Below are positions 1 through 55,435 of a stretch of DNA of 64,000 nt, in pieces; position 1 is the first letter of the stretch, and every line of letters starts with the position of its first letter. The stretch is from a virus. The stretch lies in IMG/VR virus record IMGVR_UViG_3300013233_000773; one strand, given 5' to 3'. The position numbers were made by a program, and so were the translations under genes. Below the pieces are notes generated by a model. That model did no database searches, was not told the DNA's origin, and saw only the letters and a list, made by a program, of their open reading frames with translations.

Positions 1-2418
<2,418 letters not shown>

Positions 2419-2421
2419 TCG

Positions 2422-2432
2422 TTCAAACATAG
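2422..2432 (+). promoter_or_regulatory. Candidate late-promoter motif TTCAAACATAG
   Basis: AT-rich CAAAnATAG-type motif in a short intergenic gap about 25 nt before the ATG at 2457. Similar motifs precede several structural genes. Confidence 0.4.
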
Positions 2433-2456
2433 CGTGGAAATGTCTGGAGACCCGCC

Positions 2457-2888
2457 ATGATGGACCTAGAGTATCGCCTCGACGCCGTCCTCAAGGAAGA
2501 GACTGAAGAAGCGAACGCACAGGACCTGGCCCTCCTGGCAAAGGAAGTCCTAGCCCAGATACAGGACCTAGAGACCAAGCTACAGGGAGCCAGGACGCAG
2601 CTGGTGCACATCATAGAGAGGCTGAACGGAGAGCTCGGAACTGAGATCAGGAAGAGGCAGAACAAGATCGGAGTGAGCCACAGGGACGGCTCCTGCACCT
2701 GCGGGTACAGGAGCCGCGACCTCGTCTGCCGACCGGACCTGCAGGCTGGAAAGTGGAGCATTGGCGGGCGCATGGGACGAAGCTTCCTAAGACATCACCC
2801 AGAAGTAGTCCACCTTCACGGAGACGTCGGACCGCTTGCGGATGCCATCGTTGGGTTCTTCAAGAGATACTACAGGACATTGGCATGA
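2457..2888 (+). CDS. Hypothetical protein with N-terminal coiled coil
   Basis: 143-aa ORF with GGAGA RBS. Its stop overlaps the next ATG (ATGA coupling). Confidence 0.75.
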   Translation: MMDLEYRLDAVLKEETEEANAQDLALLAKEVLAQIQDLETKLQGARTQLVHIIERLNGELGTEIRKRQNKIGVSHRDGSCTCGYRSRDLVCRPDLQAGKWSIGGRMGRSFLRHHPEVVHLHGDVGPLADAIVGFFKRYYRTLA

Positions 2889-3208
2889 ACGAAGACCTCC
2901 CAGAAGTTCCACCGGAAGCAGTCGCGGCCATCGGCCAGATGATGACCACGACCGGGCAGCAGACGATCGCCAAGTTGGCCCCGGACGAGGGTATAAAGAA
3001 CACTCCATCACTGATCGAAGGCCTGAAGAACGGCAGGGTGCCAGGTACGGCAATAGTGGAATGGCGCGACGAGAAGGGGCCGCTCCAGGTGAACGTCATT
3101 GACTTCCTCATGCAGCCCATCCTACGCGCCACGGACCCAGCAAGCGGACAGACCGTGCGCGTAAAGTCCTCAGCAGTCCCCGACGGCACATGGAGATGCC
3201 TGCATTGA
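2885..3208 (+). CDS. Hypothetical protein (start MNEDLPEV)
   Basis: C-terminal part of track ORF 2753..3208. ATG 2885 overlaps the upstream TGA. Confidence 0.65.
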   Translation: MNEDLPEVPPEAVAAIGQMMTTTGQQTIAKLAPDEGIKNTPSLIEGLKNGRVPGTAIVEWRDEKGPLQVNVIDFLMQPILRATDPASGQTVRVKSSAVPDGTWRCLH

Positions 3209-6532: not shown

Positions 6533-7435
6533 ATGGATAGGCGCGAACGCGACCAACTAATATGGGAACATAAGTGGATCGCTGAATACCTCGTAAACAG
6601 GCTGCGTGCGCGTGGCCTGGGACGCGACATCTGGCAGGAGGCCATGCTCGGTCTCCTGATGGCTGCGGAACGGTATGACAAGAAAAGGGGTAAGTTCGTC
6701 AAGTACGCATTTCCCTACGTTCATGGGCACGTCATGAACGCCATAAACAAGACCATGACCGGACACATATGCAAGATTCCATACGAAAGGCTATGGTACT
6801 ACGTCCAGGTCAATAACTGCCGGACCATATTCGAAAGAGAAGGGCCGGAACAGCTAGCTGACTTCGACCACAGGCTACGGACCACGATGCCGAGGAACGT
6901 CTTTATAGGATGGCTCACGTACAAGGCAATGAAGGAAGAGCTGGACGAGCATCAGCACGAGGGTCGGCATGAAGGCAGGGCCTGCGACGTACTGGAGGCC
7001 ATCCTCAACGAGGAGCTCAGGGAGGCAACCAGGACAGCACTGGACGAGTTGGAGGGCAAGCATAAAGCACAGGCGCAGGTTCTACGGATGCGGTACGGCA
7101 TCGGATACGCAGAGATGTCCCTGCAGGCCATCTCCGAGAAGCTCGGATGCACCAGGCAGAACGTGCACATCCACCAAGGCAAGGCAGAAAAGGCCATGCG
7201 CCCCCTGCTCATAAAGCACCTGTCAAAGGTTTACGGGGACTGGTGGTGCGGTACTGATCCCCAGAAGGGAGGCGCGGATGACCGAAGAACAGCTAGTAGA
7301 GCACATCACAGAAGGACTCAAGGAGTCAATAAAGGAACAGGCAAGCAAAGAAGGCATATCCATACAGCACGCAAGGACGGAGCTGATGAAGGGACTACTC
7401 GAAATCTACGTTCCAAAAGGGAGCGTGCAGTCTGA
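6533..7435 (+). CDS. Sigma-70-family RNA polymerase sigma factor
   Basis: Region 2 (DIWQEAMLGLLMAAERYDKKRGKFVKYAFPYV) and region 4 HTH (VLRMRYGI...SLQAISEKLGCTRQNVH). The last ~50 aa overlap the next gene. Confidence 0.85.
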   Translation: MDRRERDQLIWEHKWIAEYLVNRLRARGLGRDIWQEAMLGLLMAAERYDKKRGKFVKYAFPYVHGHVMNAINKTMTGHICKIPYERLWYYVQVNNCRTIFEREGPEQLADFDHRLRTTMPRNVFIGWLTYKAMKEELDEHQHEGRHEGRACDVLEAILNEELREATRTALDELEGKHKAQAQVLRMRYGIGYAEMSLQAISEKLGCTRQNVHIHQGKAEKAMRPLLIKHLSKVYGDWWCGTDPQKGGADDRRTASRAHHRRTQGVNKGTGKQRRHIHTARKDGADEGTTRNLRSKRERAV

Positions 7436-8331: not shown

Positions 8332-8865
8332 TTAGGCCTGACCATCGTTCCCGCGAAGATAGTCTGGCAACGATTGTCCAACAAACTTGCGTATAAACTC
8401 CTCCTGTACTGGCATGGACAGACCATACTTCCTGGCTTCAGCGATCGCACGCTCCACATTCCAGCCCTGTGAGATCCTGTAGCACGCCACGAACGTCCCC
8501 GTGCGCCCCCTGCCAGCCTCGCAGTGAACGAAGAAGCGTCCCGCATCATGATTGCGCAGGACCCGCAGAAACTGCCATACCTGCGACATGGTAGGAGCCG
8601 TGTTGTCGATGACCGGAATGCGCAGGTTCCCCATACTTAGTTCCCTACTAGCCTCTCGGTCAATGTCCCTCTCGGCAGCAAGGTTAATACACGTCCTGAC
8701 ACCCATCTTGGCCAACGCCCTGTAGTCAGCCATGTTCCTAGGCCGCGATCCACGAACTAGGTCGCTGGATACCTCGGCCACATAATGTCTGACAGGATAC
8801 CATAATCCGAGAAACTCAAGAAGCCCAATAAGCTTCCCTATAACGTTCTTGACGTAGTCAAACAT
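8332..8865 (-). CDS. Dual-specificity/tyrosine protein phosphatase (CX5R family)
   Basis: Catalytic loop VHCEAGRGRTG and general-acid loop PVIDNTAP. Hydrophobic N-terminus. Confidence 0.9.
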   Translation of the reverse strand: MFDYVKNVIGKLIGLLEFLGLWYPVRHYVAEVSSDLVRGSRPRNMADYRALAKMGVRTCINLAAERDIDREASRELSMGNLRIPVIDNTAPTMSQVWQFLRVLRNHDAGRFFVHCEAGRGRTGTFVACYRISQGWNVERAIAEARKYGLSMPVQEEFIRKFVGQSLPDYLRGNDGQA

Positions 8866-8904: not shown

Positions 8905-10668
8905 CTACAGGCTGATCCAGGCGTTGCCGGTGAAGAACTTCAGCAGAGTACCATCGAACCAGAAGTCACTGAACTCAGGGTTTCGCCCAAGGAGGCAGGT
9001 CAGTCTTGGAAGGATGTGCGTCTCATAGTCCATGTTGTCCGCAGAGAGGCCCTCCGCGTCCACCACTAGCTTGACGATCGGATGCACCAGGCCGCCAACA
9101 TAGCCAACCGGCTCTATATGCGGATTCTCGCGCAACTCGTCCGGGAAGCCGGGCTTGGTGCGGAAGTCTATTGCATCGCCCAGGCCGTCGTCCTTCTCGG
9201 TCACGTAGCGGTTGTCGTCCGACGGATTTACCGGAACCTCGCGGCGCGCGGTGGAACCGGCCAGCGCACTGAACTGGTCCCTCGTGGGCGACCACCTCGG
9301 AGATCGGTCCACCGAGAGGAAGGACAGGATCCCGGCGTCCTGGGTGAAGGTAGCGAGCGGCGGCACGTCCAATATGGCAAGGAAGCTATTGAAGAAGTTG
9401 TCGACCTCGTCCGTGGTAGCTCCCCACAGGCTGCTCAGGACGACGTGACCCGACCCGAAGCCCTGCATGAACGACTCAGACTCGGTCCCTACGCGCCCAA
9501 GAAGATCGTCCGACGGCACTATGTCTACGACCGTGCCCGGTGCCATGCTCCGTTCCAGGGTGAGGGTTCCGAACTCCACGTCCTTCGGAACTCCTGCTGG
9601 ATCTATCGAGTGGGTAGAGAAAGTGATCTTCAGGCTGCTGGCAAGGTCATCCAGCCGCTCTATGCTGGAGAGCCAGACCGGGAAGTTCTGCCTGGTATCG
9701 TCGTCGCTCGCCTCATCCCTCTCGGGAGCGGTGATGCTCATCTCTGTGAAGAGGATCTTCGGAACGGTTATGCCGTTGACTGCCGTCCTGCTGGCCCCGA
9801 TCCGGAACGGGAAGTTAGTAGCCTCCAGCCACGAGTTGACGTTGGCGTTCTGGTCCGGGATGGCGTTCCAGGCACTGTCCACCAGAATTCCGGTCCCATG
9901 ATCGAGGGCGGCCTCGAGGAAGTCATCCGGCGTGGTGATGCCACCAGGACCAGTGCCTACCATCTCGTACACAGCCGGAACGTCGAAGATGCCGTCGCTG
10001 TCGCTGTCGGTGGCCCCGTCGGGCGGTGCGAGCTTCTTGAAGAAGTCCTGGACCGCAGCGTCCGCGAGGTTCTGCGTGCGGAAGGTGACGAAACCGTCCA
10101 CGGTGGTCGCCTCGCCCGGATCGATCGGGTTCGGCTCCTCTGCAGAGTCGGCTATCGTGATGCGATTGAGCTGATAGGTGAACACGCTGTCGATGAGGTA
10201 GTCGACGAAGAACATCGCCACCTCGGAGGCGGACCCCTTCTGTTGGGCGCTGAAGACAAGCCTGAGCTTTCCGGTTATCGCGTCCCCGGCACTGCCGCCA
10301 ATGTTGGTCCCGCTGATGCGCTTGATCTTCATGAGACGCAGCAGCTCCCACTTCGCGGGGAGGCTGACGTGCATGTCCCATATCCACGAGAGGGGCAGGA
10401 CGGTCTCCTCCGTGCCGGTCTTCACCTTTGGAGTGACCAGGAACGGGAAGAGGGACTGATGGCTGAGCCTCAGCTCGATCTGGTCGACCGCCTTGGCGAG
10501 GATCAGCTGCCGGACCACGATGTCGACGTCGGGCCTGTTCAGGACTTCGAAGAACACTGGGTCGAGCGCCGTGAGCCACCGTATATTCAGCGAGGCGTCC
10601 GTCGTGAACCTGTCGAAGAGGTTGCCTGGAGTTATCGTCGGTATCAGGCTGGCGTTTACGGTAGGCAT
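8905..10668 (-). CDS. Putative virion structural protein
   Basis: 587-aa acidic ORF with C-ending codon bias like the capsid and sheath genes. Preceded by a GTCAAACCTAAC motif. Confidence 0.75.
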   Translation of the reverse strand: MPTVNASLIPTITPGNLFDRFTTDASLNIRWLTALDPVFFEVLNRPDVDIVVRQLILAKAVDQIELRLSHQSLFPFLVTPKVKTGTEETVLPLSWIWDMHVSLPAKWELLRLMKIKRISGTNIGGSAGDAITGKLRLVFSAQQKGSASEVAMFFVDYLIDSVFTYQLNRITIADSAEEPNPIDPGEATTVDGFVTFRTQNLADAAVQDFFKKLAPPDGATDSDSDGIFDVPAVYEMVGTGPGGITTPDDFLEAALDHGTGILVDSAWNAIPDQNANVNSWLEATNFPFRIGASRTAVNGITVPKILFTEMSITAPERDEASDDDTRQNFPVWLSSIERLDDLASSLKITFSTHSIDPAGVPKDVEFGTLTLERSMAPGTVVDIVPSDDLLGRVGTESESFMQGFGSGHVVLSSLWGATTDEVDNFFNSFLAILDVPPLATFTQDAGILSFLSVDRSPRWSPTRDQFSALAGSTARREVPVNPSDDNRYVTEKDDGLGDAIDFRTKPGFPDELRENPHIEPVGYVGGLVHPIVKLVVDAEGLSADNMDYETHILPRLTCLLGRNPEFSDFWFDGTLLKFFTGNAWISL

Positions 10669-10717: not shown

Positions 10718-11032
10718 CTAGTCAAGGTCCAGGGCACGCCTCCCAATGCCGTCCTCGGTACGCTGCTCCGCCTCGCCACGTTCTCTTCCGGCTTCCTGTT
10801 CTGCAACGTGCCCATGCCCGCGTTCGGGCAATAACTCCGAGAGCCGCTTGAGATCAGGTCGTCGTTCCTCCCTATCAGAGTTCAGACTTGGATGATCCAG
10901 ATCCTCCGCACGCAGCGCATCGTTCCTCACATACATGTCGGGCAGCGCATTGTTCCTCATCACATACATGTCGGGCATCTGAGGACCGGCATTGTCCGAC
11001 GCCGTCAATCTCCAGCCAATGGCGCTGGTCAT
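10718..11032 (-). CDS. Hypothetical protein with internal duplication
   Basis: 104 aa with GGAGGTGA RBS. Contains PDMYVMRNNALPDMYVRNDAL. Confidence 0.55.
   Translation of the reverse strand: MTSAIGWRLTASDNAGPQMPDMYVMRNNALPDMYVRNDALRAEDLDHPSLNSDREERRPDLKRLSELLPERGHGHVAEQEAGRERGEAEQRTEDGIGRRALDLD
10912..10977. repeat. Imperfect tandem duplication (30- and 33-bp units)
   Basis: gcagcgcatcgttcctcacatacatgtcgg is followed by gcagcgcattgttcctcatcacatacatgtcgg. Confidence 0.9.
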
Positions 11033-11035
11033 TGG

Positions 11036-11515
11036 TCACCTCCTGTAATGATCGCTGCACACTGGGCAGCCAGAACCATCCTTCACGAAGACGTTCAACG
11101 CCACAAGGTCACTTGACCGTACGAACGCAAAAGGACTCCCATCACGGCCATTGTATCCAACCTCCACCCTTATCTTTCCCGACACTATCCTCTCCTGCAG
11201 CATACAAGTCCTGATAAGGCAGAAGGAATGCAGGTCGCTGCCACCGCCATGATATCCGGCCAGAAGCATGTGAGTCAGCACCTCAGGCTCCGCTCTGATA
11301 CAGGCCCACGGTATGACCATCGACGGATGTCCTAAGACCGTCGTACCGAGCCTACTGCCATGCCTGACGAAGTTCTCGTGGCTGCCGACGACGATCCCGA
11401 CCGACCACCGGTGCCGGACCGAGTCCACGTCCTCGGTCATCAGCATAGCATCACCGCCGGACCTCTCTAGACCGACGAAGCCATCTATCCTCGCCAGTGC
11501 CTCTTCAATGGTCAT
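11036..11515 (-). CDS. Hypothetical protein
   Basis: 159-aa ORF coupled to the upstream LexA-like gene. Confidence 0.6.
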   Translation of the reverse strand: MTIEEALARIDGFVGLERSGGDAMLMTEDVDSVRHRWSVGIVVGSHENFVRHGSRLGTTVLGHPSMVIPWACIRAEPEVLTHMLLAGYHGGGSDLHSFCLIRTCMLQERIVSGKIRVEVGYNGRDGSPFAFVRSSDLVALNVFVKDGSGCPVCSDHYRR

Positions 11516-12446
11516 ACAGCACCTCGGACGGATTGAGCAACACAGGACTAGTTACCAGGACGGGGCCGAAAGACCTGACCACCCCCATACACGAACCGAC
11601 TATCTCTGTGCTATCCGGATCCATCGTCCCGCCGTCGCCGGACATGACAAGCGTCACTGCGCCCCCGCGCATCTGTACAGTAGCGACGCCCGCGCGACCC
11701 TCAGACTGCACAAGGATAGGCCGTCCAGACCTGACGTCATTGGGTTCGTCCAGCAGCAGCAGGTCTCCCCGCCTGACTCCGCGGTCAGGATCCACGTCGC
11801 TGCCCTCCACGCGCAGGGCGAACGGATCCAGCCCGCCAAGGTCCGCGTCCAGCCTGGTCATCCTAGCCCCTGGAGGCTCCCAGAATAAGCCCCCGGATGA
11901 CACGGACCCACGAACCAGGAGCTTCCTGCGCTCGCCGTGCAGGAAGCTCCTGTCCGCTATGACGTACACCTGTCCTCTATTCGACCTCGGAGTCCTGGAC
12001 AGCACTCCTGCGGACACCATCTCCTCCATCTCCTCGGCAACCTGCTTGTTGGACGAGCGCATCAGCAAAGCCACTGCTGAAGCCGTCGGTGCTACACCGT
12101 CCCTGCGGATGCAATCCCACACGATGTTCAGAATAACCGTCTGCCGGCCCGTCAGCACGGCCCCGCGCCTGAGATGCCGGTTGGGCATTGACCCCTTCAG
12201 CGCATCCAGGACCTCTCCTGCAGCAACGCCCAGGATGGACGCTATCTGAACGACCGGAATACCGTCCGAGGCCAGGCGCGAGACCACCACGTCAAGACCT
12301 GGACCCTCCTCAATAAGGCCCGCCATGGAGAGATGATATTCTATCACCTCCCTGCGCATACAGAGGCGGGACATTATTGTGCCGACCGGCATGCCGTCCC
12401 GGTGCATTGAGGCGATGGTGTCAGTCAGGTCCATACCTAGTTTCAA
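11505..12446 (-). CDS. lexA: LexA-like repressor with extra N-terminal HTH domains and a degenerate S24 peptidase domain
   Basis: LexA wHTH (LTGRQTVILNIVWDCIRRDGVAPTASAVA...SRTPRSNRG) plus S24 fold (FALRVEGSDV...GDLLLLDEPNDVRSG). Likely start is ATG 12434. Confidence 0.8.
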   Translation of the reverse strand: MKLGMDLTDTIASMHRDGMPVGTIMSRLCMRREVIEYHLSMAGLIEEGPGLDVVVSRLASDGIPVVQIASILGVAAGEVLDALKGSMPNRHLRRGAVLTGRQTVILNIVWDCIRRDGVAPTASAVALLMRSSNKQVAEEMEEMVSAGVLSRTPRSNRGQVYVIADRSFLHGERRKLLVRGSVSSGGLFWEPPGARMTRLDADLGGLDPFALRVEGSDVDPDRGVRRGDLLLLDEPNDVRSGRPILVQSEGRAGVATVQMRGGAVTLVMSGDGGTMDPDSTEIVGSCMGVVRSFGPVLVTSPVLLNPSEVLYDH

Positions 12447-12711
12447 TCCGCGCTCCCACCGGAGCCACGACGTCCGGCTCCTCCCTCAGCACGCACAGGA
12501 AGTACCGCGCCGACAGGCGACCGCCGTCCCTGGACCACTCGGTCACGCACACCATGGACGGACAGGCCGCGCCTATAAACCCGTACGTCATCTGGTCTAC
12601 GCGACGATCTCCGTCCGTCCCAGACATGGAGCAGGTAGCCAGCTCATGTCCATGCGCACCCAGCAGCGCAGAGAATGCATCAAGGGACGTCTCTATCAGG
12701 CCATACTTCAT
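12421..12711 (-). CDS. Hypothetical protein (start MKYGLIE)
   Basis: GGAGG RBS before ATG 12711. This start avoids overlap with the opposite-strand glycosyltransferase. Confidence 0.5.
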   Translation of the reverse strand: MKYGLIETSLDAFSALLGAHGHELATCSMSGTDGDRRVDQMTYGFIGAACPSMVCVTEWSRDGGRLSARYFLCVLREEPDVVAPVGARIETRYGPD

Positions 12712-12762: not shown

Positions 12763-13464
12763 ATGATCACGATAATGACCGTGAACCACGACACTCCAAA
12801 GTTCATCGAACTGTGCATCAGGGCGGTCCACCTCCGCACGAACATACCATACCGACACCTGATCATCGACAACGGCTCCCGCCCAGCAACGAAGACCCTG
12901 CTCCGGGAGTTCAAGGGAATGGGATGGATAGACCTGTTAGAGAGAAAGGCCGCCAAGGGAAGCTGGGGGCACGCCGAAGCTCTTGACCAGGTTCTGAAGA
13001 AGGAGTTCGGCCTGGTCTGCCTACTGGACTCAGACGCCTACCCAGCGGACCCAACATGGCTCCGCTTCCTCCACGACGGACTGATCAGGAACAAGGCCTC
13101 GGCCATAGGATTCCCGCACTTCCGGGACGCCACGCTGCTGCATCCAGCCTGTATGCTCTTCAGGCACAGCGACTTCGTCGCCGCAGGCAGGCCAAGCTTC
13201 AGGATCAAGGGCTCTCTCCGAACCAAGTTCTGGGACACCGGCATGATAGTCTGCAGGGAGATGCGCCGCAAGGGCAAGCTGGTCCCCTGCGACGAGAAGG
13301 AGCTCGGAAGGATGGTCAAACACAGATGGAGAGCAACAAGGGCCGAGGTCGCAACGCACCGCAGGCAGAACGTGCTCGACGAAACGCCGCTCATCAAGTA
13401 TGCCAGGAAAAGCAGAGACTGGTTCAAGGACCCATCCGCAATGGAAGCTCTCGACCATCATTAA
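12763..13464 (+). CDS. Glycosyltransferase family 2
   Basis: TVNHDT...IIDNGS, DXD-like LLDSDA, GAAAGGAGG RBS. Confidence 0.85.
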   Translation: MITIMTVNHDTPKFIELCIRAVHLRTNIPYRHLIIDNGSRPATKTLLREFKGMGWIDLLERKAAKGSWGHAEALDQVLKKEFGLVCLLDSDAYPADPTWLRFLHDGLIRNKASAIGFPHFRDATLLHPACMLFRHSDFVAAGRPSFRIKGSLRTKFWDTGMIVCREMRRKGKLVPCDEKELGRMVKHRWRATRAEVATHRRQNVLDETPLIKYARKSRDWFKDPSAMEALDHH

Positions 13465-14120
13465 CGCGGCAACGGACAGGGAGGCACATACAGGACCTCA
13501 CCAGGAACGTCGTCCCCACCCATCACGTAGTGCCTAACTTCGCACAGGTGATAATGATAGCATTTCACCTCATGGCACGGATTTATGACGTCATATTGTT
13601 TCGACAGCAGGAACGCTATCCTGTTGTCGCACCTCATCTTCCCCATGTAGAAGTCCGCCTTGACGTCAGGAAAGCCGCCACGCACGATCCAGGCGTCCTG
13701 GCTGTGCTGGTTGCTACACGGCACTGGGTCCATTAGACAACCGTCCCGATAATCCCACCGTGAGAGCGCAAGACAATAGTTGCGCCAGTTCCATCCCTTA
13801 AGCAGGACCATGGACCCAGCATCCAGGACGATATCGGAATTCGCCACGGCATTTACATCGCCACCATGCTCCCTGGTCAACCTGAAGTAGTCCCTGTACG
13901 TCGGGCGGCCTTCCATGACGACAGTATGTAGCCTCGACCAGTTAGCATACCCGAACTCGCTCTTCAGATGGTCCAGGCGTTTGGCGTCCTTGCCGTTCGC
14001 CAGGACCACCACCAGGTCAAGCTCTGGATTGCACAGGTTCTCCACCAGGCAATAGTCGAGCTCGGTCTGCCGCCTGGGCTTGGCATCCACGTAGTAGTTG
14101 ATGAATAGATTGGCCTTCAT
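13461..14120 (-). CDS. Putative GT-A-fold glycosyltransferase-like conserved protein
   Basis: ANSDI (DXD-like), ALSRWD, SQDAW and CDNRIA motifs. Family recognition is tentative. Confidence 0.55.
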   Translation of the reverse strand: MKANLFINYYVDAKPRRQTELDYCLVENLCNPELDLVVVLANGKDAKRLDHLKSEFGYANWSRLHTVVMEGRPTYRDYFRLTREHGGDVNAVANSDIVLDAGSMVLLKGWNWRNYCLALSRWDYRDGCLMDPVPCSNQHSQDAWIVRGGFPDVKADFYMGKMRCDNRIAFLLSKQYDVINPCHEVKCYHYHLCEVRHYVMGGDDVPGEVLYVPPCPLPR

Positions 14121-14132
14121 GCGATACCCTGC

Positions 14133-14390
14133 TCACTCCGCATCAGGAGGGATGATCCCGGCGGCCTCTATGTCCTCTAGACTATATACCTTCCTTCCAC
14201 CGGCCATGCCGACCGGCTTACAACGCTTCTCGATCTCCCTGACGTACTCCCTCCAGTCCTTCGGCTTAACGTCCTCTGGGCCATCCCACCAGTGCACGCA
14301 ATGGACGCCATCCTTCCTTTCCGGGCAGGGCGTCTCCTCCAGACCGGTATAGCCACAACCACAGCATCTGCCCATGACGGGATCGCCCAT
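14133..14390 (-). CDS. Small Cys/His-rich hypothetical protein
   Basis: CCGCG...CPERKDGVHCVHW. Start uncertain (the track starts at 14429). Confidence 0.55.
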   Translation of the reverse strand: MGDPVMGRCCGCGYTGLEETPCPERKDGVHCVHWWDGPEDVKPKDWREYVREIEKRCKPVGMAGGRKVYSLEDIEAAGIIPPDAE

Positions 14391-14407
14391 GGTTAGATCT
14401 CCAGTGT

Positions 14408-15268
14408 TCAGCGGCCAATCCTCAACCACAGCAAGAACCTGTACTTCGGAGGCTCCCTCACGCGCCTCAGACAGTTCAGTTCAGAATATTCGCGCTCCGA
14501 CATGGAACACCGCCTGGCCCTGTCGTAGACCGTCTTCTTGTGCACGGACGAACCATCCACGGCGACATAATGATAGCTGGGAGAGGTCATCCCGTCGGCC
14601 AACCAGTTGGCGGCAAGATAGATCGTCCCGGAGTGTCCCTGCGCAGGATCTGCGAACGACGTCAACAGCCTGACCTCAGGATTCTCCCGACCATACCTGG
14701 AGACAGCCCTGGACAACAACCACGACGCGAAGTTCTTCCGCTGATAGTCCGGGTGAAGGCAGAACCTCACTAGCTCCCGGACCTCGGACTGCTCAAGGCC
14801 ATGCCTGGACGCCATCTCCGCGCGCACCACCGGACCGACCGTCACCGCCCCGACCAGCGTTCCACCAAGGCGCGCACCGACCGTCCAGCCACGCCTGCCG
14901 GACCTACCCAGATAGTGGAAGGCCCCATAGAAGTCAAGGTACTCACTGGCCGGAACCGTCTCAAGACGGACCTCGTCGAACGAGAACTCCATCGGCGACA
15001 TGGCGAGCCCGATCCTCCGCTCCAACTCACCCAGGTCGTCGCCGACCACCATGAACCTGTCCCGGTAGCGGGCGAATCCCGCCATTATCTTCTCCCGCTC
15101 CTTCGGCTTCCTGGCAAGCCACTCGGACTTGGTCTCCACCACGAGGAACTCACCGTTCGACAACCAGATCCGGAAGTCAGGGACGAAGTGTCTCTCCCTT
15201 CCCCCCGAACTCATACGGCACGAGGTCAAAGTCCCTCTCCAGACGGACGACACGCCCGTCGGAGTCAC
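14408..15268 (-). CDS. C-terminal part of an HTH/TnsA-like endonuclease-Mom fusion (nuclease C-half plus Mom-like GNAT domain)
   Basis: RHFVPDFRIWLSNGEFLVVETK followed by FHYLGRSG...ELVRFCL...NFASWLLSRAV...SFADPAQGHSGTIYLAANW. Continues ORF 15177..16382 across a frameshift. Confidence 0.85.
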   Translation of the reverse strand: MTPTGVSSVWRGTLTSCRMSSGGRERHFVPDFRIWLSNGEFLVVETKSEWLARKPKEREKIMAGFARYRDRFMVVGDDLGELERRIGLAMSPMEFSFDEVRLETVPASEYLDFYGAFHYLGRSGRRGWTVGARLGGTLVGAVTVGPVVRAEMASRHGLEQSEVRELVRFCLHPDYQRKNFASWLLSRAVSRYGRENPEVRLLTSFADPAQGHSGTIYLAANWLADGMTSPSYHYVAVDGSSVHKKTVYDRARRCSMSEREYSELNCLRRVREPPKYRFLLWLRIGR

Positions 15269-16382
15269 ACGCCTCTATCAGCCGGAGCTCGTACGACGAG
15301 TCATGGTTAAGCTCGCCGAACCTCGTGGACACCGTACCGCGCCTTGACCGGACCAGTCCGCGCCTTCGCAGGTCCGAGATCAGCAGCGACTGTCTACGCC
15401 TCCTGTCCAGGTCTGACCACAGCTCCGACTGCTTCCTCCGGACGACCTCGACGTACTCCGGATGGTCCTCCCAGAACTTCCTTCCAAAGACGGCACCGAC
15501 CTCGGCGCAGTACCTCCTCGTCTCCTCGACGTGCCTGCGTCCATGAAACGGATTGCCACCGCCAGAGAACATCTCGGACACAGCATCCGGCCTCACGCCC
15601 TCCCCGACCAGGATCCGCTTGACTGCCTCGACGGTACAGCCGAACCTTGCCGCAACCCTGCTCATGGAGCCGACCGCACGATACGCACCGAGCACGGCCC
15701 CACGGTCGAGCCGCTGGTTCCTCCTCGAGATCGAAACCTTCTCTATCCCGTACTTTCTCAATCTATAGTCGACGAAGCCCACTCCCCTGCCGATGAACGA
15801 GGCTATCGCCGGCATGCCGTATCTGCAATATGCGTTCCTGAACCACTCCTCCGTGTCCTCATATGGCGGCAGGTCGGTCGGTACGGACTCACTGCGACGC
15901 TTGCGCACCATCCGGGGCTTCCGGACCGGCACTCCGCCCTCCACGAGGACCTTTCTCACGACATAGGTGGACACGCCATGCCTGCTGGCCACCACGTGCA
16001 TGCTGTCGCCGGACCCATACTCCCTGCAGATGACCGCGCGGTCAATGCCGTCCACGGCCACCTTCACTTCATGCTTCTTGAGCACGCGACCGACCGCAGC
16101 GACTGACCTGTCGGTATCCTCGGCTATCCTGGAGACCGTCAACCCACGCCCCCGGAGCGAGACCACCCTCCTCACGAACTCCGGATCGAACCTAGACCTC
16201 TGAGCACCTGACCTAGATCGAGACAGGCCAAGATGTCTGAACAGCTTCCCGACCGTGCGCCGCGGAACGCCAAGCAGGACACCTATCTCCGCCTGAGTCT
16301 TGCCCTCGCCGAACCACGCCCTCACGCGCTCCTTGTCGGACTTGGAGAACGTCTCGTGAACAGGAACCGGAACAGAACCCAT
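15177..16382 (-). CDS. N-terminal part of the same gene: multiple HTHs, NUMOD3-like motif and start of the TnsA-like nuclease
   Basis: Several HTH-like segments, NUMOD3-like GNPFHGRRHVEETR, then HDSSYELRLIEACD...VPYEFGG. Terminates just after a G6 run. Confidence 0.8.
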   Translation of the reverse strand: MGSVPVPVHETFSKSDKERVRAWFGEGKTQAEIGVLLGVPRRTVGKLFRHLGLSRSRSGAQRSRFDPEFVRRVVSLRGRGLTVSRIAEDTDRSVAAVGRVLKKHEVKVAVDGIDRAVICREYGSGDSMHVVASRHGVSTYVVRKVLVEGGVPVRKPRMVRKRRSESVPTDLPPYEDTEEWFRNAYCRYGMPAIASFIGRGVGFVDYRLRKYGIEKVSISRRNQRLDRGAVLGAYRAVGSMSRVAARFGCTVEAVKRILVGEGVRPDAVSEMFSGGGNPFHGRRHVEETRRYCAEVGAVFGRKFWEDHPEYVEVVRRKQSELWSDLDRRRRQSLLISDLRRRGLVRSRRGTVSTRFGELNHDSSYELRLIEACDSDGRVVRLERDFDLVPYEFGGKGETLRP

Positions 16383-16385
16383 GAA

Positions 16386-18086
16386 TTACCTTCTCCCGAG
16401 CACCTCTACGAAGAACTCAACCGGAGACCTCACCCTGTTCCTGGAGCGTAGCGGCACCACCCTGGCACGGAACCGGGAACACACGAAGTCCCTAAGCCTT
16501 CCATCAAGGTGCAGCACCGTCCTTCCGACCTCCAGGGCACGCCCTATCAGGCCCACGACGAACGACCCAGCCCACTCCTCAAAGCCACCATAATCCACGC
16601 CGTCCAGATAGTCCTCCTTGTTCCAGAACGGCGGAGAAGTGAACACGAATCCATCACCCGGCCACCCCGCATCCTCCCACCTAGAGTTCAACAGGACGGC
16701 GGAACTGCCTAGATAGTCACGGAGCCCAACGAGCCCAGGAAAGCAGATCCCCGGATCAGTGCCCCAGTAGTCCAGCCCCAGCACGTGTGACGCAAGTAAT
16801 CTGTTGCCCCAGCCGGCACAGGGATCGACCCACCGGCCCGACAGGTCTAGCGTCCTGACCGCAGCCATCACGGCAGGACACCCGAGCAGGGAAGCTCTGG
16901 ACATCCCGACGAACATCATTTCCCTCAATAGCCTCCTCGGACCTATCCTCGAACCAGGGTTTAGAAATAGGCGCTCAACGCCCTTGCGCACCAGGTCAGA
17001 GCGCAGGCCAGCAACTGGCGGTTGCCCGTTCAAGGAGACCCTCCAGACGTCCGGCTGAAAGCTACAGACAACCTCGTTGCCTGCGGAGTGCAGGTTCCTT
17101 ATGGACTGGCCGTCCATGAACTGCCCAAGATCAGTCCCACGCAGTCTCTCAAGGTCACCCTCCCTGTCGAACCATCCCGGAGCGGACCAGCCCTCCTCAA
17201 GTACGAGACCGGTAACGCGGTCAACGACCTCATGGACGTCGGTCCTATGCCGCACGTCGCCCTGCGGAATGCACAACTCAAAGTCATGCATCGACCTCCA
17301 CCGCAGGACCTCCCTGCCCCAGAACTCGTCATATCTGGCATGCTTCCTGTCCAGGAAGACGGTTGCTCCATCATAGAGCCAATCGAGCAGGACAGCCAGT
17401 CTACTTCCACCATTCCACTTCAGCTCGTGCACGGACCCACGGCGGCGGACCGCTCCGGACAGGCCGATTGCCGAATGGACCCGCTCGTCCATGGACCGCA
17501 GCGGGCCGGCATGGCGGCAGACGATGTTGACGTACCATGAGGACGTCTTGCCGGACCACCTGGACAGGCACCCGTCACCGTCAAAATAACCACGCAGGAA
17601 ATGACGGAACGAGCAGTCCGGGACATGTCCTATGATGGAAGGATCGCCATTCTCCTTGTACCGCTGCCAGCCAAGGCCGAGCAATCTCCTGGACATGCCG
17701 GTTGAGTTGAAGACGAGCCCCTTCCTTGGGTGTTCACGGTCATCCGCGACAAGCCTGCCCCGATGTCCTATGGCGGCCTGCAGTTTCTTGAGGTGACCGC
17801 CGTCGGATTCCTTCAGGAAGACGCGCACAGCACGCCTGGTTCCTGCCGACTTGGCCAGGCATCCGTCGGCAAGCAGGAATCCGAGCCAATAGGATGGCTT
17901 TTCTGCCTCAAGGTCGCCAAAGAAGTCTTCTCGGAGCCTGAACTTCCTTGTTCCGGTAGACCTTCCCTTGAGGCCGAGCCTGCGCCAGTAACGACGCACC
18001 GTGGTTATTCCACAGCCGAGCTCTACCGCCATTCTTCTCTGCGTGAAGCCGTCTGCATGGAGCTTTATGATGACATTTTCGTCCAT
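16386..18086 (-). CDS. HTH-LAGLIDADG endonuclease fused to an amino-DNA methyltransferase domain
   Basis: YWLGFLLADG and FLRGYFDGDG motifs; C-terminal SAM-binding DPCAGWG and catalytic-type FTSPPF. Confidence 0.85.
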   Translation of the reverse strand: MDENVIIKLHADGFTQRRMAVELGCGITTVRRYWRRLGLKGRSTGTRKFRLREDFFGDLEAEKPSYWLGFLLADGCLAKSAGTRRAVRVFLKESDGGHLKKLQAAIGHRGRLVADDREHPRKGLVFNSTGMSRRLLGLGWQRYKENGDPSIIGHVPDCSFRHFLRGYFDGDGCLSRWSGKTSSWYVNIVCRHAGPLRSMDERVHSAIGLSGAVRRRGSVHELKWNGGSRLAVLLDWLYDGATVFLDRKHARYDEFWGREVLRWRSMHDFELCIPQGDVRHRTDVHEVVDRVTGLVLEEGWSAPGWFDREGDLERLRGTDLGQFMDGQSIRNLHSAGNEVVCSFQPDVWRVSLNGQPPVAGLRSDLVRKGVERLFLNPGSRIGPRRLLREMMFVGMSRASLLGCPAVMAAVRTLDLSGRWVDPCAGWGNRLLASHVLGLDYWGTDPGICFPGLVGLRDYLGSSAVLLNSRWEDAGWPGDGFVFTSPPFWNKEDYLDGVDYGGFEEWAGSFVVGLIGRALEVGRTVLHLDGRLRDFVCSRFRARVVPLRSRNRVRSPVEFFVEVLGRR

Positions 18087-18194: not shown

Positions 18195-18233
18195 AAAAAG
18201 AGGCCCCGGAGGATGTGCTCTCCGGGGCCTCTT
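18195..18233 (-). terminator. Rho-independent terminator after the major capsid gene
   Basis: 14-bp perfect stem AAGAGGCCCCGGAG / CTCCGGGGCCTCTT with an 8-nt loop, running into a T5 tract on the minus strand. Confidence 0.9.
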
Positions 18234-18265: not shown

Positions 18266-19816
18266 CTACAGGTTGGAGACTGTCACAACACCGTAGTAAA
18301 GTCCGCCGTCCTCGATGAGTTTCTTGCCGTATCGGGTCATGATGCCCTTGGAAGGCGTGAAACTGTTCGGATCGAGGACCGTGGGGGTGCTCAGGAGCGG
18401 TATGTACGGCGCGTAGAAGTACCCGCTGTCGAGCACCGAGTTGCCCTTGAAGCCGAGCAGGATCTTGCAGTTGGGGAAGAGCGGATCCTTGTAGAGCCGC
18501 AGCTTGCCCTGGATCGTTCCGGCGGAGGTGATGCCGATGTCGATCCCGTCCTGGGCGAGGGCGTCGGAACCACGGAAGTCATTCAACTGCTCGAACTTGG
18601 AGGCGATGTCGGCAGAGGTCACCATCCAGTTGGCCGGCCCGCGGAGGGTCGTCCTGTGGATGATGTTGGAGACTTCCAGCACCTTGTAGAGCAGGGCGAT
18701 GTTCCGATCGGTGAAGTTGACCGAAGCTCCTGCCGCCGTTCCGAAGTTGTGGGTGGTCCTGATCGAACTGGCGATGATCAGGTCGTTGATGATTTCGCGG
18801 TCGATCTCGGCGACCATCTCGTCGGCCATGAGGTCGGTGAGGGTCCCTTCCGCGTCGATGTTGTGGACGCTCTTGAGGTCCTGGGCCGCTTCGAGGGACC
18901 AGGAGGTCTTGAGCTTCCGGGTGATCGCGCTGACCGTGTCACTGTCGATCGAGAGCGTGATCTCGGGCTGGAAGGGGTTGTTCTCCAGGTCGAACTCGTA
19001 GTCAGCCCTGGCGATCGCTCCTGCCGGGAACGAGCCGGACGAGAGGGTGATCTTGAGGCTGGCATCGGTGTGGTCGAACTTGGTCGCTCCTGGAGTGGTC
19101 GTGTCGACTGTGACCGTGGGACAGGCCGTCGAGTCGCTGACCAGGACCTGGTCCGGGTCGCCGTTCGAGTCGAAGCTGATCTGCAGGCAGGGCTCTGGCG
19201 ACTCGCAATTGTCGGCATCGGAGAGGAAGACGTTGACGGTGAGGGTACCGCCGAGCACGGGCTTGTGGAGCAGGCCAGAGCTGGTGATGAGGGTACCGGC
19301 GGTGTCGATGGTGAGATCTTCGTCCTTGACGGTCTGGGAGCTGTAATAGGGGTCGAGCGCCCATCCGTTCTGCCGTGCGAACTGCTGGGCGGTGTTCTGC
19401 CTCATGATCTGGGTTCCGGCGACCGTCTGGCCCTTGCTGATGGCGTAGCGGTATCGGATGTAGAAGATGAGGCTGGCTGGGCTGCTCATGGGTTGGACGC
19501 CGACGAGGTTGTCCGCGATCAGCCGGGGGTAGGACTTCCGGATGAGGGGAAGGGCGAACCTGGTGAAGTCGGCGATGTTGCCGGTGGTGGTCGCTTCCTC
19601 GAAGAGGGGGGACCCTTTCCGGTCGCTGTGGGCGTGCTGGTTCTCGAGCATGGCGGCCATGAGGTCGAACTTGCCTGCCTTGACCTCGGCGCATTTCTTG
19701 AGCACGGGTGCCCATTTCTTGACGAGCTTGTTGCGGCGTGCTTCCATCATGAGGTGGGCGTCGCGCCGTTTGTTGTCCTCGGTAATGGTGCCGGCCCTGG
19801 GGGTTCCGCTTCGCAT
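18266..19816 (-). CDS. gp23: Major capsid protein (T4 gp23-like)
   Basis: LIADNLVGVQPMSSPASLIFYIRY, TRKLKTSWSLEAAQDLKSVHNIDAE, GYFYAPYIPL, KGIMTRYG. Confidence 0.97.
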   Translation of the reverse strand: MRSGTPRAGTITEDNKRRDAHLMMEARRNKLVKKWAPVLKKCAEVKAGKFDLMAAMLENQHAHSDRKGSPLFEEATTTGNIADFTRFALPLIRKSYPRLIADNLVGVQPMSSPASLIFYIRYRYAISKGQTVAGTQIMRQNTAQQFARQNGWALDPYYSSQTVKDEDLTIDTAGTLITSSGLLHKPVLGGTLTVNVFLSDADNCESPEPCLQISFDSNGDPDQVLVSDSTACPTVTVDTTTPGATKFDHTDASLKITLSSGSFPAGAIARADYEFDLENNPFQPEITLSIDSDTVSAITRKLKTSWSLEAAQDLKSVHNIDAEGTLTDLMADEMVAEIDREIINDLIIASSIRTTHNFGTAAGASVNFTDRNIALLYKVLEVSNIIHRTTLRGPANWMVTSADIASKFEQLNDFRGSDALAQDGIDIGITSAGTIQGKLRLYKDPLFPNCKILLGFKGNSVLDSGYFYAPYIPLLSTPTVLDPNSFTPSKGIMTRYGKKLIEDGGLYYGVVTVSNL

Positions 19817-52453: not shown

Positions 52454-52487
52454 GCAGATGGCCCAGGATTACTCCTGGGCCATCTGC
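52454..52487 (-). terminator. Perfect 15-bp hairpin after the tail sheath gene
   Basis: GCAGATGGCCCAGGA / TCCTGGGCCATCTGC with a GTAA (GNRA) loop on the minus strand. Weak U-tract. Confidence 0.7.
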
Positions 52488-52510: not shown

Positions 52511-55378
52511 CTACTGGACAGTACTGGTGACTACACCGCCAGCCTGCAGAACCTCATCCGAGGAGAACGAAGCGTCAGTCCTGAGAACAACCAGATTGAG
52601 CTGTATGAACTCCGCTGTCCTTGTGGGCTTCAGGAAGAAAGCAACGTGAAGCTCATTCCGATCGATGCGCTCAGGCGTATTGTTCCGTTCGTCGCTCACC
52701 ACCAGGAATCCGTTCAGCCCTCTCCTGGCCTGTATGTCGGCAAGGAAGGATTCGCTGACGTTCACCACGCGTGCCCGGGTGATCTCGTCGTTTGGCTCGA
52801 AGACGAACTGCCGGAGGAAGTTGATCGCGTTCTTCTTGATGAAGATCAGGAGCATCCTGACGTTCACCCGGTCTAGGGCAGACTGCTTGCGCTGGAGCGT
52901 CCGCTGTCCAAAGACCGTTATCCCGTCCTGTGGGAAGTTGACGATCGGATTGACCGCGTTCCCAAAGCCGTACATCAGGTCGCGCTCGCCCTGGGTGAGG
53001 TCGACCTCAGTGTCGAGCGGGGTGAGGAGCCTGCCCCTGGTGGTGCCGGCTGGGGCGAACCAGATCTCTGCATCGCGCTCGGTCCTAGCATAGACGCTAC
53101 TGACCTGCCCACTGGGCGGGACGAAGATGGTCTCGCCGCTGAACTGGTCGAAGATCTTGAGCCAGGGATGGTAGAGTGCTCCGTAGCTGGAGTCGATGGA
53201 GTTGGCCAGGTCGCTGAAGAGTATGCCATTGTGCCAGTCGACGACCTGCTGGGCGCGGAGTCCGAATGGGCTGTCGACGATGAAGAGGCAGTCTCCGCGC
53301 CGTTCACACATCTGGAGGGCCTGCCCGATGACGGCTCCGGAGGTGACTCCGGGGATGACCAGGAGGGTGATGTCGAAGACCTCGGGATTCTGGAAGGCGA
53401 AGATTCCGGTCTCGAGGTTGGGGTTGCCTATGATGGCCCTGTCCAGCTCCGAAGAGAAAGCGGGGTCGGTTGGGATGCCGTTGGCCGCGCCGGTGAAGCC
53501 GCTCCTGTTGAACTCTCCGGGCACTCGGACCTCGAAGGAGGCGAGGTCGTTGACCGGGTCGTTGGCGAGGAAGGCTGGTCTCGGGATCCATTGGATGAAG
53601 GCGTTGCCGTTGGGGCCTCCGAACCTGGATCCGGCGTTGATCACGTTGCCGACGTAGCGTTCCTCTCTGGGGTCGAAGGAGACATCGTCCACGGCGTCGA
53701 CGGTGAGGTTGTTCTTGTCCTCGATGACGATGCGGAACCTTCCCGCAGCGTCGGTGCCGCCTCCTGTCTGGGTGAAGACCTGGAGGGTGACCTTGAAGTC
53801 GTCGATCCAGGTGCCTGCGCTCTTCGAGACGAACCAGCCCACTACGTTTTCATAGTAGATCGAGTCGGCGAGGCATTCGTCGCTGGAGGGGTCGACCTCG
53901 CAGGAGAGTGGCGAGGAGGGAGTGATGGTTCCGGACTCCGGGAGCAGGACGCGGGGGTCGTTGAAGACCTGGAACTCCCTGGTGTAGGGGAAGAGGATAC
54001 CGAGCTCCTCGGCGAAACGGAGTGTCTTGAAGTGGGATCCGTCGGCCTGCATCTTGATGCGGTCGAAGCGGTTGTCGGAGGTGGTCTCGATGACGATCTG
54101 GACTTCGCCACCGGGGATGATGACGGTGAAGGCGTTCCAGAACCTGGTTCCGCCGTCGATTCCACCAAGGTGTATGGCGGAGGCTATCGCGGTGGAGGAC
54201 TGGGCGAGCCCGACGGGGACGCTGAACTCGATCTCGGTGGTAGACTGCTGCCCGATGACCTCGACGTTGACCCTGTTGTTGCTGGTGGTGATGTCGTAGG
54301 GGCCTGCGGTGGTGGTGAGCAGGTGGCTGCGGGGGATGTCGAAGGCCCACAGAACCTGTCCGACCTCGAGAGCGAAGGCCTCGGTCCCGGTCAACTGGAT
54401 GCTCTCTCCGGCGATCCTCGTGGTGAAGCAGACGGTCCCGTCCGCTTCTGCGACGGCGAGGTATGGGTCGGAGTCCGGGACGAGGGCGTTGACCGCGTCT
54501 GCGAAGGTGGTCGCGTCGGTGAAGGAGGACCCGTCGGCGAGGGAGTAGGTGGTTGCTCCTGCTCCGGCGACGAGGTCTGCCTCGACGGCGAACGAGAGGT
54601 TGTCCGGTCGTACGGTGAAGGTGAAGGTGTCGTTGGCGGCGATGGGGACGGTCCCCGTGACGACGACCTTGAACAGGAGCCCCTGTCCGGCGTCGATCAC
54701 TTCAGACTCGCCTGGGGTGGCGGACTCGACTAGGACGTCGGTGAGGACGGTGGCTCCGTCGGAGTTGCGGATGACGTCGAAGGTGGCTCCGTCAAGGAGG
54801 GAGCCGCCGGTGGTGGGGACGTCGCTGGTGATCAGGACGGTGAAGCTGTCGTCAATCGGTCCGGTGTAGCCGGCGAGGTCCACGAAGGTGAGGGTGGCTG
54901 AGGCCGGTCCGTCGGTTGGGGTGATCTCGACGTCGTTGTAGTCGATGTCGGTGACGAGGGCGGCGTGGAACTCGAGGGGATCGTCTGCGGTGATTACCCT
55001 GGTGCAGATCTTGCCGTTGTCGATGCCGGAGAAGACGGCTATACGCCCCCAGCCCTTGCCGCGGGCTCCGCTGTTGTCGATGCAGACGCTGGAGAGTTCC
55101 TCTGGCTGTCCGTCCTCGCACTCTACGCCGACCCGCATGATCCAGGCGCGGTTTCCCTCCTCGAAGTAGGAGAGGGCGGCGTATCCGAGGAAGGACTCGG
55201 GAAAGGGTTCGCCGAAGACGTCGATGTACTGCTGGGCGTTGCTGACGAAGGTCGGCTCCTGAACCGGACCCTTCTTTGCAGTGCCGATGAAGGCCGGTGT
55301 GAGCGCTCCGGTGGCCGCTGGGACGATGCTGAGGTCGATCTCGCGGGGGAACACTCCGGGCGAAAGGAAGACGGGCAT
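52511..55378 (-). CDS. gp18: Tail sheath protein (gp18-like)
   Basis: MPVFLSPGVFPREID, FIGTAKKGP, SSYGALYHPW, VFVPPSG, WFAPAG, NPIV, FGQRTL, DRVNVR, FVFEPND. Confidence 0.97.
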   Translation of the reverse strand: MPVFLSPGVFPREIDLSIVPAATGALTPAFIGTAKKGPVQEPTFVSNAQQYIDVFGEPFPESFLGYAALSYFEEGNRAWIMRVGVECEDGQPEELSSVCIDNSGARGKGWGRIAVFSGIDNGKICTRVITADDPLEFHAALVTDIDYNDVEITPTDGPASATLTFVDLAGYTGPIDDSFTVLITSDVPTTGGSLLDGATFDVIRNSDGATVLTDVLVESATPGESEVIDAGQGLLFKVVVTGTVPIAANDTFTFTVRPDNLSFAVEADLVAGAGATTYSLADGSSFTDATTFADAVNALVPDSDPYLAVAEADGTVCFTTRIAGESIQLTGTEAFALEVGQVLWAFDIPRSHLLTTTAGPYDITTSNNRVNVEVIGQQSTTEIEFSVPVGLAQSSTAIASAIHLGGIDGGTRFWNAFTVIIPGGEVQIVIETTSDNRFDRIKMQADGSHFKTLRFAEELGILFPYTREFQVFNDPRVLLPESGTITPSSPLSCEVDPSSDECLADSIYYENVVGWFVSKSAGTWIDDFKVTLQVFTQTGGGTDAAGRFRIVIEDKNNLTVDAVDDVSFDPREERYVGNVINAGSRFGGPNGNAFIQWIPRPAFLANDPVNDLASFEVRVPGEFNRSGFTGAANGIPTDPAFSSELDRAIIGNPNLETGIFAFQNPEVFDITLLVIPGVTSGAVIGQALQMCERRGDCLFIVDSPFGLRAQQVVDWHNGILFSDLANSIDSSYGALYHPWLKIFDQFSGETIFVPPSGQVSSVYARTERDAEIWFAPAGTTRGRLLTPLDTEVDLTQGERDLMYGFGNAVNPIVNFPQDGITVFGQRTLQRKQSALDRVNVRMLLIFIKKNAINFLRQFVFEPNDEITRARVVNVSESFLADIQARRGLNGFLVVSDERNNTPERIDRNELHVAFFLKPTRTAEFIQLNLVVLRTDASFSSDEVLQAGGVVTSTVQ

Positions 55379-55435
55379 TTGTTTATCTCCTCGTTCCGGC
55401 ATTTGGCATTCAGCGTCTGCTGTCCGCCGAGACAT

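Follow-up and report, generated by a model that had tools for sequence, protein, structure and literature searches.

What does a LexA-like protein do for a phage once the residues of its self-cleavage machinery have been replaced? The question is raised by a single gene within a 64-kb window (the whole stretch of DNA analysed here), which comes from the genome of a T4-like huge phage that has not been cultured: the major capsid protein gene of the window (18266–19816) matches T4-type capsid proteins, and its relatives, at 72–82% identity, lie on IMG/VR contigs as long as 395 kb. The LexA-derived protein itself has a single database record, from a 147-kb JGI contig. The ORF reported at 11505–12446 by a first-pass annotation of this DNA does exist; it lies on the minus strand, as do the other ORFs of its run and the domains and residues described below, and encodes 313 aa from a TTG start at 12446, with GGGAG 6 nt upstream. 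Gene callers prefer an alternative start, the ATG at 12434, which gives a product of 309 aa.

The LexA-like gene is the second in a tight run of four orphan ORFs (12711–12421, the LexA-like gene, 11515–11036 and 11032–10718) that is divergent from a GT2 glycosyltransferase gene. It overlaps both of its neighbours, each of which has a ribosome-binding site. The stop codon of the upstream ORF (12421–12711; 96 aa, GGAGG 8 nt before the ATG) overlaps the LexA-like start, and the ATG of the downstream ORF (11036–11515; 159 aa) overlaps the LexA-like stop, with probable translational coupling of these last two. The fourth ORF (10718–11032; 104 aa) contains a short internal tandem repeat of about 30–33 nt at 10912–10977. 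Elsewhere in the window are a dual-specificity/PTP-type phosphatase gene, located among virion genes (8332–8865; PF22784, E 3.5e-22), and a sigma-70 factor gene (6533–7435). A capsid gene 71% identical to that of this phage is found at positions 1668–3200 of an 18-kb contig (L146) in a Promethearchaeota MAG; since the phage encodes a sigma-70 factor, this contig is probably mis-binned. Searches with the aminotransferase, capsid and RecA gave no host assignment. In a related 247-kb phage record (L001), cas3- and cse1-like genes (type I-E CRISPR, by-eye reading) occupy positions 12983–17033, directly downstream of the orthologue of window positions 8905–10668.

Residues 95–293 are LexA-like according to profile, solved-structure and fold searches alike, which bears out the LexA kinship proposed in the first-pass annotation. 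The match to TIGR00498 has an E-value of 1.6e-11 but reaches only 44.2 bits against a cut-off of 110.95, and the matches to PF01726 (residues 98–158) and PF00717 (residues 207–267) are both slightly below cut-off. By sequence and by fold, the top solved-structure matches are all LexA: the winged helix aligns to 1lea with Z 10.4 and rmsd 2.1, and for the C-domain the VIA Z is 11.5, with rmsd 3.0 over 115 residues. Identity to LexA is about 25%, and the AlphaFold model of the whole protein has a mean pLDDT of 80. The two-domain LexA layout is present—an N-terminal winged helix and a C-terminal S24 fold—with an N-terminal addition of 88 residues. A homodimer prediction for the S24 domain scored 0.26, against a mark of 0.42, and is not used as evidence.

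The register of the phage protein was set against E. coli K-12 LexA, with A83-A84-G85 corresponding to S183-S184-G185, S119 to D217 and K156 to A255. The register previously drawn by eye proved correct at the cleavage site, the Ser loop and the Lys segment. Of the further claim that all three autocleavage determinants are degenerate, the substitutions Ala84→Ser, Ser119→Asp and Lys156→Ala stand, but the scissile-bond Gly85 is retained. The former scissile bond is thus Ser184-Gly185 (11892–11897), at a position where 85/85 intact LexAs carry Ala; T154, also invariant in these 85 proteins, is replaced by G253. Both members of the Ser-Lys dyad are gone, with Asp217 (11796–11798) at the position of the catalytic serine and Ala255 (11682–11684) at that of the lysine, and further substitutions give V218 for M120, M268 for P169 and G270 for N171. 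The S24 domain (residues 172–293; 11568–11933), delimited by profile, alignment and fold comparison, retains G80, F111, L113, V115, G117, G128, D129, G142, G190, G194 and R197. It has no lysine, the last one in the protein being K175; hence no alternative general base is available, and a shift of register cannot rebuild the dyad. Ser216 was considered as a shifted nucleophile and ruled out for want of a lysine partner. With Ala84, Ser119 and Lys156 replaced and the S24 domain free of lysine, the sequence makes self-cleavage very unlikely, and the earlier description of a non-cleavable LexA-derived protein in a phage is apt.

The same annotation saw two extra HTH-like domains, and AlphaFold does place two three-helix units before the winged helix (pLDDT about 62–83). 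Unit 1 (residues about 5–45; 12312–12434) has an Atlas feature similarity of 0.82 to HTH_23/HTH_7-type clusters, which is a lead only; no relatives were found when residues 5–95 alone were searched among shorter proteins. Unit 2 (residues about 49–88; 12183–12302) matches PF02796 (E 0.004) and is a weak repeat of unit 1 (7/18 identical). Kinship of these units with the HTH repeats of the window's homing endonucleases was also considered, and rejected when no match was obtained.

The LexA-type winged helix (residues 95–165; 11952–12164), identified by profile, alignment and the 1lea fold match, retains L4, T5, R7, Q8, P26, T27, G54 and the wing residue R64. Among these, T5, R7, Q8, T27 and R64 are positions that we take to contact the DNA backbone and minor groove in the LexA–DNA structure. 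Retention of the winged helix, as claimed from the by-eye alignment, therefore holds for the fold; it does not hold for E30A, H46E, L47M, L50M and K53A, nor for helix 3, which is acidic. The residues found here at the helix II/III signature (A, E, M and A at E30, H46, L50 and K53) occur in 0, 0, 1 and 4% of intact LexAs (n=85). Recognition helix 3 has a net charge of −3, the lowest of 94 LexA-like sequences, and shares at most 5/15 residues with any of the other 93, whereas intact LexAs have their recognition-helix nearest neighbour at 6–15/15. Across the N-domain, 6/11 conserved positions are kept, as against 9–11/11 in eight dead LexAs among the nearest matches. Since the base-contacting residues of LexA are located in helix III (PMC3091678; PMC13416735), its rewriting alongside retained backbone and wing residues is more suggestive of a changed DNA-binding specificity than of lost binding. 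The turn before helix 3 is one residue short and resembles that of Planctomycetota LexAs, which is only a hint of origin. The protein has thus kept the LexA fold, with a dead autoprotease, a rewritten recognition helix and two HTH units fused in front. No other protein with this HTH-HTH-wHTH-dead S24 layout turned up in the databases searched, and by its defining residues the protein falls outside the LexA family.

Near the LexA-like gene there is no convincing palindrome, no known SOS box and no enrichment of such boxes, and no operator was identified. The motif GTTC-N4-GAAC occurs at four sites (0.9 expected), all within ORFs, and neither a divergent cro/operator region nor a LexA-controlled antirepressor was found in the 64-kb window. 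The gene does contain, at the linker between winged helix and S24 domain, a perfect 14-bp inverted repeat with a 9-nt spacer (11916–11952) and no U-tract; 0/600 synonymous codon shuffles reach 14 bp. It may act as an RNA hairpin or as an operator within the gene, or may have arisen by template switching. There are three perfect inverted repeats of that size in the 64 kb, and the other two are intergenic. Perfect intergenic hairpins lie at 18198–18233, after the capsid gene and followed by a terminator-like T-run, and at 52454–52487, after gene 52511–55435 (15 bp, without T-run). The motif GGA-N5-TCC is found 58 times in window positions 1–64000, where 33 are expected and 30 resamples give at most 45; the excess may be a codon effect.

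A full HMMER scan of 1.84 billion cluster representatives returned no homologue besides the protein itself, the next matches being LexAs at 27–35% identity, and neither did a word-index search nor searches of viral and metagenome contigs and of cultured phages. The LexA profile has no match in 30 related phage records, five of which are at least 90% complete; searches with PF01726 and the neighbouring genes were likewise empty in 22–30 related records, most of them fragments. One relative, 91% complete, has the flanking structural genes in common with this phage (58% identity) and carries other cargo at the locus, with no LexA-like match. The LexA-like gene is, then, a lineage-specific accessory. 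Two related phages encode stand-alone S24/S26-like proteins of 97–110 aa with a G-x-S-M serine motif (L086 1417–1710; L087 1405–1737), which are unrelated to the LexA-like gene (tblastn). In a quick tree with low support, the phage protein joins by a branch of 3.3 changes per column, longer than any other, and its donor is not placed. The reading frame nevertheless contains no stop or frameshift, and 19/38 conserved positions are kept, compared with about 25% identity overall; at such a distance, these two observations argue for selection on the fold. The losses follow a pattern: those of the catalytic and cleavage-loop residues (A84, P87, A90, S119, M120, T154, K156, P169 and N171) are seen, and the structural residues are kept. 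In a codon-adaptation test of the gene, antisense controls scored equally high.

Loss of LexA cleavage is not very unusual. A dyad residue (S119 or K156) is absent from 8/24 of the nearest clusters (50% identity), and A84, S119 and K156 are all absent from 5/24, in a sample enriched by the query; a further 56/56 high-scoring Planctomycetota LexAs are intact. The dead paralogues (P0005, P0009, P0012, P0014, P0017, P0020, P0023 and P0025) are uncharacterised; three of their loci lie among ordinary chromosomal genes and one near an integrase. P0023 forms a long branch nested among intact Planctomycetota LexAs, which indicates an independent loss there, and dead LexAs appear to arise repeatedly. 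Like the phage protein, the paralogues have lost one or both dyad residues, in most cases along with the Ala-Gly site, and the GSD loop of P0023 is the same as that of the phage protein. They differ from it in being about 200 aa long, in their well-conserved DNA-binding domain and in their location on a chromosome or integrase-bearing element. At only 26–35% identity to the phage protein, their losses and its own are probably independent. The set from P0005 to P0025, with L003, L004 and L005, is mostly chromosomal and has well-kept DNA-binding domains; it is these paralogues, rather than the phage protein, that look like candidate natural non-inducible SOS-box binders.

The partner of LexA in cleavage, RecA, was not seen in the 64-kb window, and a bacterial-type RecA is encoded in 13/22 related phage records, including 4/5 near-complete ones (among others G002, G005, G007, G008 and G009; L266 1507–2505; L267 1468–2526). 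These RecAs match PF00154 at E about 1e-100 to 1e-120, are about 65% identical to bacterial RecAs and have an intact MFG loop, the element that keys into LexA (bioRxiv 10.1101/2023.10.30.564768). The LexA pocket for RecA F203 consists of V79, V82, F111, L113, V146 and V153 (bioRxiv 10.1101/2023.10.30.564768; PMC9926225); the phage protein has R179, V182, F209, L211, L245 and A252, of which 5/6 are hydrophobic. A reading of V79R as loss of the pocket was dropped, Arg being found at this position in 4/85 intact LexAs. The acidic patch D150-D151-E152, in which charge reversals impair RecA-mediated cleavage (PMC9926225), has become E-G-R instead of D-D/G-E, and an E152R-type reversal is seen in 2% of intact LexAs. 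If the phage does carry a RecA, a captured LexA would, in the course of replication, meet abundant activated RecA, which would be a simple reason for cleavage to be lost, whatever the job of the protein.

We tentatively lean towards a history in which one T4-like huge-phage lineage acquired LexA long ago and made of it a DNA-binding regulator that acts on phage promoters and does not respond to damage. Dimerisation would then be the sole task of the dead S24 domain, by analogy with Synechocystis LexA or phage 186 CI, and the winged helix would still hold DNA by the backbone and wing residues that it has kept but read a new sequence; HTH unit 1 perhaps helps in that reading, and the extra HTH units may extend the site. 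Binding as an oligomer is what we infer from the kept wing, helix-1 and C-terminal strand residues. Cleavage would have been a liability, in that the abundant single-stranded DNA and RecA of phage replication would destroy a cleavable repressor; the RecA of the relatives could favour its loss. Counted for such a regulator are (i) an intact fold at about 25% identity on the longest branch, with patterned losses, (ii) the precedent of Synechocystis LexA and the repeated appearance of dead LexAs, and (iii) the kept T5, R7, Q8, T27 and R64, the RecA genes of relatives and the overlaps with neighbours bearing ribosome-binding sites. Counted against it are the lack of an operator near the gene, its singleton status and the lack of RecA in the window, together with a net acidic charge, uncommon in elements that read DNA, on helix 3 and on both HTH units.

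The first-pass annotation had inferred a non-cleavable super-repressor that could silence host SOS or resident prophage induction. Like the products of lexA(Ind-) alleles, it would occupy SOS boxes of the host, so that SOS genes and the prophage antirepressors under LexA control stay off. The protein does appear non-cleavable, lexA3 abolishes induction of Gifsy prophages (PMC3121763), and, with no host assigned, the host LexA may be of an unsampled type. Such a role, however, presupposes recognition of the host SOS box by the DNA-binding domain, and the base-reading helix III has been rewritten: it is the most acidic of 94, matches no sampled LexA (best 5/15) and sits in a domain whose E30A and H46E occur in 0/85 intact LexAs. 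A mimic of the host repressor should conserve this helix above all, as other dead LexAs do, and the gene is not conserved across the phage clade; we consider host SOS silencing poorly supported and very unlikely. Even less probable, by a little, is that the protein maintains immunity in a temperate or pseudolysogenic state until an antirepressor inactivates it, as happens in phages 186, N15 and Gifsy. Non-cleaved repressors are well known (PMC3121763), the C-domain aligns to 186 CI (Z 10.4), and IMG/VR classes three related records as 'provirus'; yet the gene lies mid-run among coupled ORFs within the virion gene region, the window contains no cro-like divergent gene, operator array or integrase, and near-complete relatives have no such gene.

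Two further explanations are unlikely to a similar degree, though less so than a host or phage repressor. In one, akin to the sequestering of RecA filaments that the first-pass annotation also raised, the dead S24 domain is a pseudo-substrate that binds activated RecA filaments or host LexA subunits and stays uncut, the DNA-binding parts being vestigial. The F203 pocket is largely kept, the acidity of the recognition helix is compatible with a loss of DNA binding, RecA with an intact MFG loop is encoded by many relatives, and gp7 (PMC4551915), Hex (PMC3564112) and AriS (PMC9043618) are precedents for phage proteins that block RecA-mediated cleavage. The pocket residues, however, also belong to the fold core, so that their retention is not specific; the charge at E152 of the acidic patch is reversed, a decoy would have no use for the added HTH units or for the wing and helix-1 residues that are kept, and blocked filaments would hinder the recombination of the phage itself. 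That such a decoy, on RecA filaments or paired with host LexA, goes on to steer SOS and prophage induction during infection is somewhat more doubtful again. The other explanation is that a lexA gene, once captured, now drifts as a relic in an accessory region under weak selection or none, and that its frame has stayed open by chance. The protein is a singleton among 1.84 billion cluster representatives and was not found in any related phage record searched, its neighbours are also orphans, and both the dyad and the DNA-reading residues are lost. Against drift, a neutral sequence at 3.3 changes per column would be expected to gain stops or frameshifts and to lose invariant Gly, Pro and Arg residues, whereas 19/38 conserved positions are kept at about 25% identity and the AlphaFold model folds well.

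Uncleavable LexA-like proteins are already known. A re-specified regulator of phage promoters would add, with modest interest, to the cases in which a LexA/S24 scaffold has lost its damage sensor and found another use, and the phage concerned is T4-like and huge, not temperate. An SOS-controlling decoy would be nature's parallel to engineered LexA decoys, in a lytic huge phage whose clade often encodes RecA; a protein that blocked cleavage through RecA in this way would be a naturally occurring SOS inhibitor, of relevance to curbing SOS-driven mutagenesis. As the protein is a singleton and no host was assigned, its reach is limited under either reading.

Among known systems, the E. coli LexA Ind- mutants (lexA3/G85D, S119A and K156A) share the two-domain fold and are altered at the same positions, but have a wild-type DNA-binding domain, where the phage protein has a rewritten helix III, about 25% identity and 88 extra N-terminal residues. 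It is because that wild-type domain still binds host boxes that lexA(Ind-) alleles suppress SOS and are dominant. The phage proteins gp7 (GIL01), Hex (434) and AriS (Listeria phi10403S) dampen RecA-mediated cleavage or SOS (PMC4551915, PMC3564112, PMC9043618); they are described, respectively, as a small LexA-binding protein, an overlapping-frame product and an ANT/KilAC-domain protein and, unlike the protein studied here, are not LexA homologues. In keeping the S24 fold and losing the autoproteolytic residues, the phage protein resembles non-cleavable S24-fold regulators. The repressors of phages 186, N15 and Gifsy (186 CI, N15 CB, GfoR/GftR) are not cleaved, that is, not inactivated by RecA-mediated self-cleavage (PMC3121763), and the 186 CI C-domain has the same fold as the phage S24 domain (2fkd, Z 10.4); these belong to temperate phages, with Cro/CI-type HTHs, operators and LexA-controlled antirepressors, whereas the phage protein has a LexA winged helix. 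LexA of Synechocystis sp. PCC 6803 (Sll1626) likewise combines a winged helix with S24, carries Gly-Gly in place of Ala-Gly (A84G) and Asp in place of Ser119, and functions as a repressor of genes outside the SOS response (PMC1524924, PMC3091678); it differs in being chromosomal, keeping the lysine, having a cyanobacterial-type recognition helix and lacking extra HTH units. By analogy, the phage protein would most plausibly work like Synechocystis LexA or the non-cleaved phage repressors.
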